The notes under the pieces are model-generated. The model made no database searches. It had not been told where the DNA came from and saw only the letters and a list, made by a program, of their open reading frames with translations. This document shows positions 4,251-45,392 of a stretch of 64,000 bases of DNA, piece by piece. Position 1 is the first letter of the stretch. Every line of letters starts with the position of its first letter. Where the stretch lies: assembly GCA_030824965.1 (NCBI GenBank), contig JAPJQV010000009.1, forward strand, positions 7,164 through 71,163, written 5' to 3'. The DNA is from Micavibrio sp. (lineage in GTDB: Bacteria; Pseudomonadota; Alphaproteobacteria; Micavibrionales; Micavibrionaceae). Position numbers and translations under genes: made by a program.

Positions 4251-4565
4251 ATGTCATTAGCATTGAAACTGAAAAATCTTAGAGAAGCTTCTAAAAAGTC
4301 GCTTCAGGATGTCGCAACTGAAGTCGGAGCTTCGAAAGCCCATATTTGGGAACTTGAAACAGGGAAAAGTCGTAATCCCTCAGTTGATTTACTTCAAAAA
4401 CTCGCTGGTTGCTTTAAAGTCAGTATTTCCGAATTATTAGGTGAAAATCCGGCTGAAGCTGATGCTAAGCCGGAGATCGTCGCAATGTATCGGGAATTGA
4501 AAAGCTTGGATGACGCGGATTTGGAAACAATTCGGGTTCTTATGGAGCGATTGAAAAAGCGGTAA
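4251..4565 (+). CDS. XRE-family helix-turn-helix transcriptional regulator (104 aa)
   Basis: HTH_XRE signature SLQDVATEVGASKAHIWELETGKSRNPSVDLLQKLAGCFKVSISELLG; 7-nt gap to the downstream peptidase gene. Confidence 0.8.
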   Translation: MSLALKLKNLREASKKSLQDVATEVGASKAHIWELETGKSRNPSVDLLQKLAGCFKVSISELLGENPAEADAKPEIVAMYRELKSLDDADLETIRVLMERLKKR

Positions 4566-4572
4566 ACGTCGA

Positions 4573-5460
4573 ATGCAAATACACCGTATGGATTTGGACA
4601 TGGCGCGGACACCCCTCGCGTTGGTCTCGAAGATCATCGCGACGCTTCCGAACATCCCAATTCCAGTTCCGCTTCATGAGTTAGCGACGGCATTAGATAT
4701 TATTGATTTTGCTGAACTTGGAACTCAAGGTTTCGAAGGCGGATTACTAACAAATATCGAACGAACTGATGGCATTATTCTCGTTAATAAAAATGCCAAT
4801 CGCCGCCGGAAACGATTTACGATTGGGCATGAATTAGGCCATTTCCTTATCCAGTCTCATCGGCCCGTTATTCCTGGACAATTCTTGTGTCGTCGCGAGG
4901 ATATGCAAGCTTGGAATACAAAACATCAGGACCAGTATAGAAGAATGGAGGCAGAGGCTAATGAGTTTTCCTCACTGCTGCTAATGCCTCCGCCATTTCT
5001 GCGTACTACGATACAAGCTTTTAAAAGCCCATCGGTCAAAGTCATTTCAAAAATTGCGGATCAGTTTGATGTCAGTAAGCAGGCCGCCGCTAGAGCTTAT
5101 GTACGATATGCCGATGACCCATTGGCGGTATTATTTATAAAAGATGGGATTATTAAGGATAGCATAGTCGGTAAAGAATTTCCGTATCTTTCTACTAAGC
5201 GCGGTAAGCTTGTATCATCATCGTCATCTTACATTCGAGATCAGAAATCAACTGCGCAAATGAGAGAGTGCCGGCTTCCTATATGGACGGATGATGAGCG
5301 TTGCCGGATATTTGAGGAGTCCCTTTATCAACGAGACGGGTACGGTATCCTTTTATTATGGGCGCAAATTTCTGAAGCCGATGAATTCGATCCTGAAGAA
5401 AACATGACATCAACACAGAGGTGGAAGTCACGTATCGAAAACCGTGGCGGCATTAGATAA
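4573..5460 (+). CDS. ImmA/IrrE-family (COG2856) zinc metallopeptidase with an uncharacterised ~170-aa C-terminal domain
   Basis: HExxH motif (FTIGHELGHFLIQSH) in the N-terminal half; gene immediately follows the XRE gene, the classical ImmR/ImmA or DdrO/IrrE arrangement. Confidence 0.75.
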   Translation: MQIHRMDLDMARTPLALVSKIIATLPNIPIPVPLHELATALDIIDFAELGTQGFEGGLLTNIERTDGIILVNKNANRRRKRFTIGHELGHFLIQSHRPVIPGQFLCRREDMQAWNTKHQDQYRRMEAEANEFSSLLLMPPPFLRTTIQAFKSPSVKVISKIADQFDVSKQAAARAYVRYADDPLAVLFIKDGIIKDSIVGKEFPYLSTKRGKLVSSSSSYIRDQKSTAQMRECRLPIWTDDERCRIFEESLYQRDGYGILLLWAQISEADEFDPEENMTSTQRWKSRIENRGGIR

Positions 5461-6829: not shown

Positions 6830-9800
6830 ATGAAATTGAGAACAGGTGGGAAACTTTATTCCGGTTTTACTGTTCGCTCTGGGTCAAATTTTATTCATTT
6901 TTTAAGTCGGTTTAACGCTCTAAGCAAAGGTTTCAAAACGATGTCGCTGCGCTCCACTCAAACAATTAAATCTCTGGGCAGAAAAGTTTCCTTGATGGCT
7001 ATGCTGACGGCAGGTGCCCTGATGACCCCGGGACAGGCTTTTGCGATTGATGCGGGCGAGCTGCCTTCGGGAGGCACCGTAGTAGGTGGCGATGCAAGTT
7101 TCGACTATTCACAACCAAACAAACTCGACGTTCATCAAAATACGGATCGTACAGTCATTAATTGGGACAGCTTTAATATCGGCAAAGATGCAACGACACA
7201 ATTTTATCAGCCAAATTCAAACTCTTTGGCGGTTAATAGAGTTTATTCCAAAGGCGTAGATCCGACACAAATCCTTGGAAAGTTGATCGCCAATGGTAAG
7301 GTCATGGTTCTTGACCGTAACGGAGTAATCTTCGGTAAAGACGCAGTTATCGATGTTGGTGGCATTATCGCATCCACCGGCGATATCAATGTAAATCAGG
7401 TTATGTCTGGCGCGAATAAGATAGACATTACGAATATCTCGGAAGCTGCCGTTATTAATGATGGTAAGATTACCGTCGCTGATCAGGGTCTTGCTGCACT
7501 TGTCGCCAAAACTGCCGTTAACAACGGCGTTATTAAAGCGAAAGTGGGGCGTGTAGCTTTGTCGTCCGGTACAAAAGCAACGGTCGATCTCTATGGTGAC
7601 AACCTGATCGAAATCGCGGCTGACTCCAATCTTGAAGCTGCGCTGGTGTCAAATTCCGGCAAAATCGAAGCTGAAGGCGGGACCGTTCAATTAACAGCAT
7701 CCGCAGCGAAAAACGCGGTGGATAGCGTGGTGAACATGGATGGTGTCGTCGATGTTTCATCCGTGGAAGTAAAAGGAGGAAAAATTATCCTCGGTGGCGG
7801 CAACGTAAATGTTTCTGGTAAGTTAAATGCTAACGGTAAAACCGGCGGCGGCAAAGTCGATATCAAGGGCAAGAATGTCAAAGTAACGGAATCTGCCGAA
7901 ATTGCGGCAAACGCCGTTGAAACAGGGAAGGGCGGTACGGTCGATCTTATCGCCGAAGACGCTATGTCTTTCAAAGGACTGATCACGGCCCGTGGCGGTT
8001 CTATATCCGGCAATGGTGGTGACGTTGAAGTATCAGGTTATGAATCTCTTTTCTATGACGGTCATGCCGATTTGACAGCTGCCAGTGGTCAATTAGGCAA
8101 TCTGCTGCTAGATCCGCGCTTTATGGTCATCTATGGAGGGAATGTTCCGCTTAGTACGACTTACACCATTTCATCTGCCCGCCTGGCAAATCAATTACGT
8201 TCCGCCAATGTTACGGTCCAGGCCGATGAATTTATCGATGTCGGTACGAAAGACGGCGTATATCTTGAGAATGTTGGCAGCCTGCTGGAAAATATTGCGA
8301 CTAATATTGCATTAAATGCTTTGCCTGATGGCGATGTCGACGTCAGCACATGGTCGCAGACGACTTTCAGTTTCCCAAGCTGTATTCTCGGCTGTACGAC
8401 GACAGGCACCACGGCAGGAAACTTAACCCTGACGAGCGATACCGTTAATTTCAATCGTAACCTGACAATGGGTAGCGGTTCTCTGACCGTAAACGCAGGA
8501 ACGATCAATCTAAACTCTCGAATCCAGAACAAAAATGCTTCCTTGCTCGGTGATTCCCATTTAATCGGCACATCTTCTGTAGGCACGATCAATATCGGCG
8601 CAAACGGTAAGATCAACCAGGGCATTTCTTTTGCAGACGATGCGACAGCATTGACTACGATAAACGTCGCGGCAGGTACCTATGCAGAATCCGTTAATGT
8701 CAATAAGGCCAATGTTCTGCTCAAAGGCAACGGGGTACTGAACGGGACGAAACTTGCTCCAAATTCTCCGGGCGTTCAGATTAATGCCGATAACGTTACA
8801 GTCGACGGTTTCACTATTCTAAATGCCAGCGGCGCCAGTGATGGTTACGGTATAATCGTAGACGGCTACGACAACGCGACGATCAGCAATAACTTTGTCA
8901 TCGGAAGCCAGCTTAACGGCATCAAGGTGAAAAACAGCAATTCATCTTCTGTCTCTAACAATACAGTTAACGGCGCAGGTCACGACGGCATACTTGTTGA
9001 GAACTCCGCCAATGCGACGATTAACGGCAACACAGTTACAAACGTGGCGAGCCTTGCTTCTAATATCGGCAGCGGTATCTCTATCTTGAACAGCAACGGC
9101 GCATCTGTAACGGATAACACAATCAGCAATACCGGCTGGCAGGGCATTCGTTTGTCTTCGGCTAACAACGTGCTTGTTCAAGGTAACAACGTCTCTACAT
9201 CTGGCGCGGACGGTATTTACTCCCAGTGGGGCGGTAACGTAACTATTGATGACAACACCGTTTCAGGTACAGGCCGCAGCGGCGTTATGATCCTCAATAC
9301 TGGGGTTAATAATCTTATTACCAACAATATTATCAACGGTACATCCGAGGATGCGATTCGGGTTCAGGTATCGAACGGTGCGATTGTCACAGGCAATATT
9401 ATCGGTACTGGCGCAGGTTCGATTGGTCGCGACGGTATTCGGTTGGCCGGAACCAGTAACGCTCTGGTTGATAACAATACGGTAGCCAAAGCCAATCGTT
9501 ACGGCATTTACGCATCTCAGGGCGGATCTTTGGTAACGAACAACACAATCAGCAATAACCGTGTCAATAACACAGGCGGAAATGGTCTTTACCTGAACGG
9601 CAGCAATGCCAGCTTCTTGGCAGATAACTTTGTCGGAATTTCAGGTCTTGCCGGGAATATTAAAGGGGATGGTGTACTGGTCGAGAATTCCGCCAACGCG
9701 ACGGTAGACGGTAATGCAATAGCAAACGTGGCGAGCCTTATTCCGAATATCGGAAGCGGTATTTCTATCTTAAACAGCAACGGCGCATTTGTAACGGATA

Positions 9801-43691: not shown

Positions 43692-45392
43692 CTAGAAGCT
43701 TGAATTTAATGTAGCATGTAAATCAGCAAGATGGTTAGAGAGGTCGGTAAAACTCGCTCCGTAGCTACTCTGACTAGTTGCCCCAATCGAATGGTTTTCA
43801 TTGCCGTAAAAGATATTATGCTGATCGCTTTCCAGTACATCTTCGAGTTTTGGCCAAGTTTTTTCAACCACGACAGGTTTTGACAAAAGGCTTTCCGGCA
43901 CGTCCGCGCTGGTAAAAGTAGCTGTTGCGTTCGAGCTGAAGAACATCGCGTTGCTTTCTTTCTTCAGATAAAAAATGTCCTGTGTCAGATCGGCTGATTT
44001 TAAGTTCAGCGCAGTACCATCCAGCGAAACAGAATGCACATATAAGTTTCTGTCGCCGACACCGGGCTTATTTTTATCGTTATCAAATCTAATACCGAAA
44101 CTATCGCCAGCAATGAAAGAAGGAATTTCAAAAGTCAGGGTTTGTTTTCCGCCGACAGCTTTCAAAGCCGTTACTTCCTGTTGAGCGACAACTACGCCAT
44201 TTACCAATAGCTTTAAGATTGGAGCACCGTCAAACTGTGAACCTGAGGCGACAATTGTAATTGTCTTTGGCGGAGGCAAAAGAACAGCAGGTTTAGCGGC
44301 AATCGTTTCTGGCACATGAATGTTATTTTCGCTTGTCAGGCCAGATGTATTGCTTCCTGCTGCATAAACAAAATTTCCTGGCTTATCGGATGTATTGTTT
44401 TCAAACGATCCGCTCGCGATATTTACGCCATTGAGGGCAAGAGGGGCTTTCGTCCAGTCATGAAACTCGTTACCTGAAATCTCGAGATTGTTGACCGTCA
44501 TATTCCCGGCAGTTGTGTTTTTCCCGTCAATATTGATATCGCGGTTTGCATTGTAGAACTGATTGTTATTAATATCGATATTCTTTACGTTATCGCCGGT
44601 TGCCTGATCGATAATCATGACATTCGAAGACCATGAATATTTCGTGTGATCCTTTACGACGTTGTCTTCAACGACCACATTATTAGCGGACAGGCTCATG
44701 CCGAAACTCCCGCCTTGCATGTAATTGTCATGCGCATAAAGCCCGTCGCCTTGGTAAACCAGGTTGCCCTTGGTCGTATTCGACGCTTCGTCGATAGTCA
44801 GTATATTGCCGGCAATCAGGGTATTGTTTCCAACGATCTGAATGTTATCGGCATTCGCACCCGTCACGTTTAAGAACTCGCTATTGACGATGGCAACGTT
44901 ATTCATGGATGTCATATATATTCCATCGCCATGGGAATTTGTAACTGTATTGTTCTGGAACAAAATATTTGAAGATTTTGTCCAGTTAAGCGAGCCAAGA
45001 TTATTGCTTCCGCCGACATTGTCGAATGTGACATTTCGAATAACCCAGTTATTGGCGTTCCACCCATACATGCCTACGCCCGATGTCTGAAATTCTATAT
45101 TTTCAACGATAAAATAATTTGAATTGGTTGCCGTGATACCTTGTCCGGTATCGGAGCTTAAGATAGGCGCATCGCCTGCACCATAGGCCGAGATGGTAAT
45201 CGGCATAGTCGCTGTACCGTAAACTTTATTGAATGTTAATGTCTGATCGAAATCCGATCCGCGTTCGAGCAGGATGGTATCTCCCGCCTTAATTTTCCCT
45301 GACAGCTTTGAAAAGCTATTCCATGCCTGATCTGCTGTTGTACCGCTGTTTGTATCGCTCCCCGATTTTGAACTTAGGTAGTATATTGTCAT
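43692..45392 (-). CDS. right-handed parallel beta-helix (PbH1 repeat) protein with a C-terminal carbohydrate-binding-module-like domain; putative glycanase/lyase; no signal peptide
   Basis: Repeats NNTVTNSHGDGIY, NNVAIVNSEF, NNVVVEDNVV etc.; C-terminal roughly 130-aa beta-sandwich-like segment (GDSFGIRFDNDKNKPGVGDRNLYVHSVSLDG). Confidence 0.7.
   Translation of the reverse strand: MTIYYLSSKSGSDTNSGTTADQAWNSFSKLSGKIKAGDTILLERGSDFDQTLTFNKVYGTATMPITISAYGAGDAPILSSDTGQGITATNSNYFIVENIEFQTSGVGMYGWNANNWVIRNVTFDNVGGSNNLGSLNWTKSSNILFQNNTVTNSHGDGIYMTSMNNVAIVNSEFLNVTGANADNIQIVGNNTLIAGNILTIDEASNTTKGNLVYQGDGLYAHDNYMQGGSFGMSLSANNVVVEDNVVKDHTKYSWSSNVMIIDQATGDNVKNIDINNNQFYNANRDINIDGKNTTAGNMTVNNLEISGNEFHDWTKAPLALNGVNIASGSFENNTSDKPGNFVYAAGSNTSGLTSENNIHVPETIAAKPAVLLPPPKTITIVASGSQFDGAPILKLLVNGVVVAQQEVTALKAVGGKQTLTFEIPSFIAGDSFGIRFDNDKNKPGVGDRNLYVHSVSLDGTALNLKSADLTQDIFYLKKESNAMFFSSNATATFTSADVPESLLSKPVVVEKTWPKLEDVLESDQHNIFYGNENHSIGATSQSSYGASFTDLSNHLADLHATLNSSF

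Follow-up and report, generated by a model that had tools for sequence, protein, structure and literature searches.

A three-unit beta-helix array in a TPS-domain exoprotein of a Micavibrio-like bacterium that is probably ancient and homogenised by patchy gene conversion

The 64,000-nucleotide stretch of Micavibrio sp. DNA analysed here (the window) carries the gene of a large exoprotein whose middle is made of three tandem copies of one module, and the reading of this array in which we have good confidence is that an ancient triplication has been kept at three units, homogenised by patchy gene conversion, and held under purifying selection. The module that underwent this ancient in-frame triplication would be a nine-rung, 228-aa right-handed beta-helix, and the three copies would form the middle of the shaft in an exoprotein of TpsA type, secreted or on the surface, that a Micavibrio-like alphaproteobacterium makes. 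The unit cores would since have been partly homogenised again and again within each genome by short, non-reciprocal recombination, i.e., gene conversion, while the distal edge of the array would have escaped conversion and still shows orthology.

The exoprotein gene lies at positions 6830–11920 of the forward strand, where the ORF list and its translation give a longest ORF of 1696 aa, and a 100% identical database protein (P0001) starts at Met38 (position 6941) and has 1659 aa. Its TPS (two-partner-secretion) domain, at 7106–7825 on the forward strand (ORF residues 93–332), was matched by PF05860 with E = 4.7e-22 and 79.5 bits (cutoff 33.5) and by TIGR01901 with 62.4 bits (cutoff 29.1), and it was almost unchanged across four orthologues. 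The best solved relatives of the N-terminus were EtpA (8vba, E = 1.1e-48), HxuA and HMW1, with phmmer E-values ranging from 1e-48 to 5e-21, and the second conserved TPS motif reads DRNG as against NPNG in EtpA. In the Pfam order the TPS domain is followed by seven Beta_helix/NosD matches (Beta_helix 6e-81, NosD 1e-56), in agreement with the NCBIfam matches to adhes_NPXG and para_beta_helix; PF13229 reached 270 bits over 7 stretches and TIGR03804 para_beta_helix 131.7 bits over 8 stretches, and NosD_copper_fam, at 133 bits against a cutoff of 300 bits, fell far short. The non-repeated C-terminal region (11036–11917, forward strand) is conserved in the four orthologues and holds more beta-helix coils and a conserved tail without a known domain, and Pfam searches at E <= 1 of the C-terminal 294 aa and of the linker before the repeats gave nothing significant, the best E of the C-terminal part being 0.12. 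Pfam scans of 29 ORFs of the window, a set that takes in all those of at least 430 aa, turned up no TpsB (ShlB or POTRA family), and none is adjacent to the exoprotein gene in the loci of its three relatives (L001, L002 and L003) either. By its domain the exoprotein is a TpsA, and, since no partner was seen in the ORFs scanned, its predicted route of secretion is read from the TPS domain only.

The repeat consists of three tandem in-frame units with a period of exactly 684 nt (228 codons), all on the forward strand: unit 1 at 8984–9667 (ORF residues 719–946, with nine PbH1 beta-helix rungs), unit 2 at 9668–10351 (residues 947–1174) and unit 3 at 10352–11035 (residues 1175–1402). An in-frame tandem triplication of 684 bp with these three starts had been proposed in the initial annotation, and its period and phase were borne out by self-comparison, a repeat finder and blastn. 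In a self-comparison, similarity at offsets of 684 and 1368 nt was confined to the region from about 8970 to 10975. When unit 1 was searched with blastn across the entire window, the other two units were the only matches (E = 0 and 8e-175), with none elsewhere than in this gene; on the strength of these E-values, the self-comparison and the phase, the repeat is real and well outside what chance would give. Tandem Repeats Finder, with a longest period of 500 and thus blind to the 684-nt array, gave only a trivial 15-nt, 2.1-copy repeat at 10904–10934. The beta-helix coils that flank the array have 27–33% amino-acid identity to a unit, in keeping with the original remark that the outer repeats of the gene are much more diverged. 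The end of the array required revision, as the coordinate first given, 10935, falls inside unit 3; nucleotide similarity of unit 3 to unit 1 fades and stops at 10973, and the structural end is at 11035. The last ~45 residues of unit 3 are diverged from units 1 and 2 and orthologous to the unit-3 tails of the relatives.

The description of the units as almost identical at the DNA level did not hold. Nucleotide identity over the full units was 78.9% between units 1 and 2, 79.1% between units 1 and 3, and 81.7% between units 2 and 3, with 80–81% identity between their amino-acid sequences, and the gapless blastn alignments from unit 1 had 81.7% identity over 617 nt and 84.1% over 622 nt. This identity was patchy, being 83–88% at unit positions 1–552 and 51–64% at positions 553–684, the last 132 nt. 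Variable sites among the three units numbered 197 out of 684, and at 179 of these a single unit was the odd one out (unit 1 at 72, unit 2 at 54 and unit 3 at 53). The longest exact tracts common to the unit pairs were 82, 56 and 37 nt. The longest, shared by units 1 and 2 on the forward strand (9465–9546, equal to 10149–10230), corresponds to a run of 18 consecutive variable sites at which the two units match (permutation P < 1e-4), and 9465–9546 is, from its sequence, a candidate for recent gene conversion between these two units. Purifying selection acts on the units: dS between them is 0.61–0.82 and dN/dS 0.16–0.17.

Comparison with the relatives placed these values on a timescale. The orthologous proteins P0002 (73% identity, 1660 aa) and P0003 (71% identity, 1652 aa) each have three tandem units with a period of 228 aa, P0004 (56% identity, 1656 aa) has three with a period of 241–244 aa, and all three share the unit boundaries and gene neighbours of the window protein. 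A unit of the window genome had 63–70% nucleotide identity to any unit of L001 or L002, and 65–69% to the orthologous unit in the nearest relative, as against the 79–82% among the window units themselves; in the rest of the gene, window and L001 were 65–75% identical, with 38–47% identity at third codon positions. Values of dS were 1.6–2.5 between orthologous units of the window and L001, and 0.37–0.75 between those of L001 and L002, which represent different species in a GTDB-based collection. As the dS between the window units is close to that between L001 and L002, the mean age of homogenisation in the window genome is about that of a species-level split, apart from a few patches, up to 82 nt long, that are younger. 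The array is not a recent amplification.

Neighbor-joining (NJ) trees with bootstrap gave different groupings for the two parts of the unit. With the core (residues 1–184) units clustered by genome, with support of 96.5% for the window and 100% for L003, and units 1 and 2 of L001 and L002 grouped together (99.5%); with the tail (residues 185–228) the unit-3 copies of all four genomes formed one clade (94.5%). Since the core groups by genome and the unit-3 tail by position, the three-unit array predates the split of the lineages, and an interior homogenised within each lineage with a distal edge that was not is the signature of concerted evolution. That the units had been homogenised by recombination was part of the original proposal, and this part was upheld, both by identity that is higher within the genome than between orthologous units and by a switching of the odd unit in blocks. 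The odd one out along the window array changes from block to block in the order 2, 1, 2, 1, 3; runs of the same odd unit numbered 67 versus 119±6 expected from 10,000 shuffles, and the longest run of matching variable sites had a permutation P <= 1e-4 for each of the three unit pairs. Such a block pattern is beyond any single duplication history, and several short exchanges between units can give it.

The relatives supplied an example of such an exchange. Units 1 and 2 of L001 share an exact tract of 359 nt, with flanking parts that differ, and in its sister L002, whose units 1 and 2 are 77% identical overall, there are differences all along the same stretch; both loci have three units. A tract of this length that appeared in L001 without a change of copy number speaks for gene conversion rather than for cycles in which units are lost and duplicated anew, and we infer that conversion was the homogenising process, although such cycles may have had a part in older events. 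The strongest rival to it is nonetheless one of whole-unit birth and death, in which the array of each lineage would have shrunk to one or two units and then, by unequal crossing-over, grown back to three, so that copy number would have fluctuated in the past, with selection restoring the number three. Clustering of the unit cores by genome is also what contraction and re-expansion would be expected to give, and the wide variation of repeat period and number in the family indicates that copy number changes over long timescales. However, birth and death predicts one consistent relationship among the units, and the closest pair instead changes block by block; the L001 tract was homogenised with its flanks left different and its three copies kept; and the same boundaries and exactly three units in four lineages make repeated contraction the less parsimonious history. 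We consider this rival improbable.

Less likely still is the account that came with the original description, of an array recently amplified, near-identical and now expanding and contracting via RecA-dependent unequal recombination, so that the length of the protein would vary and the copy number be uncertain. The units are tandem and in frame, and RecA-dependent recombination has a minimum of ~25 bp, measured in E. coli, which the tracts of 82, 56 and 37 nt exceed. In addition, several other members of the family have nearly identical long repeats: of 120 homologues, 43 had a long-period internal repeat (at least 60% identity in a 100-aa window) and 9 reached at least 90% identity in their repeats, with periods from 69 to 481 aa. 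Against recent amplification stand the identity of whole units, which is below the 85% set beforehand as the threshold for refuting it, and the dS of 0.6–0.8. Against ongoing variation in copy number, three units are present in each of the four lineages sampled, whose proteins differ in length by no more than 8 residues (1652–1660 aa), the unit-3 tail is orthologous across lineages, and 10 contigs yielded one and the same 1656-aa three-unit protein of the L003 lineage. No variant of the four lineages with 2 or 4 units occurred among 698 homologues, a sample that for copy number consists of four lineages, with one genome of the window's own species in the databases searched. A metagenome scan for close relatives yielded only fragments of 27–30% identity, and a genome scan the two known relatives and an unrelated Paraburkholderia TPS protein. 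Neither the recent amplification nor the ongoing copy-number variation is supported.

It had also been suggested that the array was a point of assembly collapse, and an artefact in which a short-read assembler collapsed, duplicated or cross-joined the repeats is, if anything, a shade less probable still. Both the window and its relatives seem to come from short-read assemblies of metagenomes (the two nearest relatives are SPAdes NODE contigs from metagenome bins), which are known to be weak at tandem repeats; an assembler that swaps segments at shared k-mers could inflate a mosaic. EtpA of enterotoxigenic E. coli illustrates that one-unit discrepancies do arise, as its published length is 1767 aa (PMC10284417) and its RefSeq H10407 record has 1539 aa, exactly one 228-aa unit short, a gap that shows that discrepancies occur with repeats that are 97–99% identical. 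In four complete plasmids etpA encoded 1513–1544 aa with no steps of 228 aa, and the 10–34 places per genome at which BLAST put the EtpA repeat in E. coli are a count confounded by sub-repeats. In the window array the units differ at 197 of 684 sites, with one unit odd at most of them, no exact repeat is longer than 82 nt and the frame is intact across three units, and the same three-unit structure is found in four independent assemblies, one of them reproduced on 10 contigs; collapse was judged unlikely. That there was no recombination at all, and that ancient units are alike solely via strong purifying selection on the beta-helix, has next to no probability, since, despite a dN/dS of about 0.16 and the many invariant Gly, Asn and Asp positions common to all 12 units of the four genomes, identity at third codon positions is 65–75% between the window cores versus 43–47% between orthologous units, which means that the extra similarity does not come from protein-level constraint, and both the clustering by genome and the block-wise switching of the odd unit speak against it.

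The structure of the array was approached with an AlphaFold2 model of residues 659–1462, built from an alignment of the four orthologues (pLDDT 91, pTM 0.85). The model is a continuous all-beta solenoid with regular three-strand rungs, nine to each 228-residue unit, and manual division of the unit sequence gave nine PbH1 coils of 23–30 residues each, totalling 228. Foldseek searches of the PDB matched right-handed parallel beta-helix proteins only, among them PL6 alginate lyases, tailspikes, AlgE4/AlgG, RbmB, NosD and the adhesin PfbA, with TM-scores of 0.1–0.26 on the query and 10–19% identity. The exoprotein thus resembles PbH1/NosD proteins such as the PL6 alginate lyases, AlgE4, AlgG, RbmB, phage tailspikes and PfbA in its Pfam match and fold class, and is unlike any of those named in its low TM-scores and identity. 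No catalytic motif was identified in the exoprotein, and on the predicted model the fold class is clear and no enzymatic activity can be assigned. A beta-helix rises ~4.8 Å per rung, so that the three modelled units would add roughly 13 nm of shaft.

Concerted evolution of intragenic repeats in surface proteins has precedents in the streptococcal alpha C/Rib proteins, the staphylococcal and enterococcal repeat adhesins and the "periscope" proteins. Like these classic repeat proteins, the exoprotein array is tandem, in frame and in a protein predicted to be exported, carries footprints of recombination, and has units that are more alike within a genome. In the classic proteins the DNA repeats are near-identical (typically >95%) and strains are documented to differ in copy number, whereas the units here are ~80% identical and number three in all four sampled lineages. 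The feature is of a known kind, one more repeat array under concerted evolution in a beta-helix exoprotein of TpsA type.

Among characterised proteins, the closest is EtpA of enterotoxigenic E. coli (PDB 8VBA/8CPK). The likeness extends from the TPS domain, for which EtpA is the best solved-structure match, to a passenger that is one unbroken three-sided beta-helix and to a shaft with tandem 228-residue repeats of nine helical turns each, which in EtpA jointly form a multivalent glycan-binding surface (PMC11463764, PMC10284417). The differences are as plain. EtpA has STSGNAINL-type coils and the Micavibrio exoprotein PbH1/NosD-type coils; EtpA has 3 full repeats and a partial one; and repeats 2–4 of etpA on plasmid p948 have 99, 99 and 94% protein identity to repeat 1, compared with 80% between the Micavibrio units. 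The gene etpA lies between the transporter gene etpB and the glycosyltransferase gene etpC (the role of etpC being that given in the EtpA paper), while the Micavibrio gene has no adjacent TpsB or HMW1C-like gene and neighbours an exopolysaccharide locus. Homology between the two kinds of repeat was considered and rejected, hhalign of the 12 units against 4 EtpA units giving a probability of 1.1% and E = 0.048 over 28 columns, and phmmer of the repeat region against the PDB found no EtpA match. The match in module size is therefore one of architecture only, and it may be a coincidence, as members of the family show many other repeat periods.

By analogy with EtpA and other PbH1 proteins, the three modules could form a length-defined, multivalent carbohydrate-binding (or carbohydrate-active) shaft. 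A bolder joint reading takes the count of three modules as a selected "ruler" of length or valency in a shaft with which a predatory bacterium binds prey or exopolysaccharide, with modules kept alike by conversion, and the module size of EtpA as a convergent structural optimum; we regard this as speculative and rather unlikely. If it were true, the 228-residue match with the sequence-unrelated EtpA would be not a coincidence but an optimum for TpsA beta-helix shafts.

The surroundings of the gene were also conserved. It adjoins, in all four genomes (with synteny in L001–L003), a polyprenyl glycosylphosphotransferase gene on the reverse strand at 11965–13437 (Pfam Bac_transf and NCBIfam EPS_sugtrans), which opens a large exopolysaccharide locus of the Wzx/Wzy type, recognised downstream by Pfam and NCBIfam. 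This locus has genes for the Bac_transf priming transferase, a polysaccharide-lyase-like protein, a BBP2_2 outer-membrane barrel, a Poly_export protein, a Wzz/tyrosine-kinase protein, a Wzy_C protein, acyltransferases, glycosyltransferases and a flippase, and the position of the exoprotein gene relative to it was kept in all three relatives for which DNA was retrieved. Pfam and NCBIfam on the scanned ORFs gave no adjacent HMW1C/EtpC-like glycosyltransferase and no PEP-CTERM signal. The nearest relatives are metagenome bins labelled "uncultured Micavibrio sp.", and more distant protein matches were annotated as Micavibrio aeruginosavorus or Alphaproteobacteria; the Micavibrio literature consulted (PMC3189940, PMC12428579) makes no mention of this family of TPS-domain beta-helix proteins.

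The practical consequence is a correction, in that this locus does not deserve a flag as a hypervariable or mis-assembled hotspot. It is instead a clean, small example of concerted evolution with a visible conversion boundary, i.e., homogenised cores and an orthologous edge, set in a little-studied family of orphan TPS-domain beta-helix proteins from Micavibrio-like predators, beside a conserved exopolysaccharide locus. If the shaft binds prey or matrix glycans, as the repeats of EtpA bind those of the host, the exoprotein would be a candidate attachment factor.

The repeat module of the exoprotein (window 8984-11035) comprises 228 aa folded into nine beta-helix rungs, which is exactly the size reported for the C-terminal repeats of EtpA, the two-partner-secreted adhesin of E. 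coli, at 228 aa and nine turns (PMC11463764, PMC10284417). The likeness is one of size, as sequence homology between the modules was undetected (hhalign probability 1%) when the EtpA side of the comparison was taken from etpA on the ETEC plasmid p948 (L010:12847-15528), and the equal module size could be a coincidence or a structural optimum. The length records of EtpA itself differ by the same amount, i.e., the literature gives 1767 aa (PMC10284417) versus 1539 aa in RefSeq (L010:12829-17448, p948 of ETEC H10407), a gap of exactly one 228-aa repeat; on three further complete plasmids etpA encodes 1513-1544 aa. The two proteins also differ at the second conserved motif of the TPS domain, where EtpA has V-N-P-N-G-V and the exoprotein has V-L-D-R-N-G-V (window 7300-7330, ORF residues ~160-168), with DRNG replacing the usual NPNG and invariant in all four of the orthologues (4/4).

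Long internal repeats were present in about a third of the exoprotein homologues (43 of the 120, P0001-P0120), with periods from 69 to 481 aa, and in several of these proteins, e.g., P0002, P0031, P0058 and P0107, the repeats were 90-100% identical to one another over 100-aa windows. Unit 2 (window 9668-10351) as a lone query returned zero matches in the large protein search, in a database that does contain the full-length protein; the unit sequence is Asn/Gly-rich, and the word index or a composition filter probably accounts for the null result. Within unit 3 there is also a 15-nt repeat of 2.1 copies (ACCAATAATACAATC, window 10904-10934) encoding TNNIITNNTI, which is trivial, being two neighbouring similar half-coils.

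Units 1 and 2 of the Micavibrio-like relative L001 shared an exact identity of 359 nt (L001:6864-7222 and L001:7548-7906) covering unit positions 220-578, and this tract was missing in the sister genome L002. Two readings fit this tract, namely that units 1 and 2 underwent gene conversion very recently, or that short-read assembly of this metagenome bin produced it as an artefact.

Neither the scanned ORFs of the 64-kb window nor the neighbours of the orthologues in L001-L003 included a gene for the TpsB transporter, and on these ORFs and neighbours the exoprotein is an orphan TpsA. In the window and in L001-L003, its gene adjoins a large exopolysaccharide locus (window 11965 to about 45400) on the side of the priming glycosyltransferase. 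The distal end of this locus holds a gene whose product, 566 aa long, carries a CBM60 carbohydrate-binding module (window 43692-45392, minus strand; E = 5e-11). The upstream flank was unconserved, with two genes at window 4251-5460, the first of the HTH_3 (XRE-type) family and the second an IrrE/ImmA-like Peptidase_M78, versus a phage integrase and a ParB-methylase upstream of the orthologue in the relative L003 (L003:496-3831), and this side of the exoprotein gene may be a mobile-element insertion zone.
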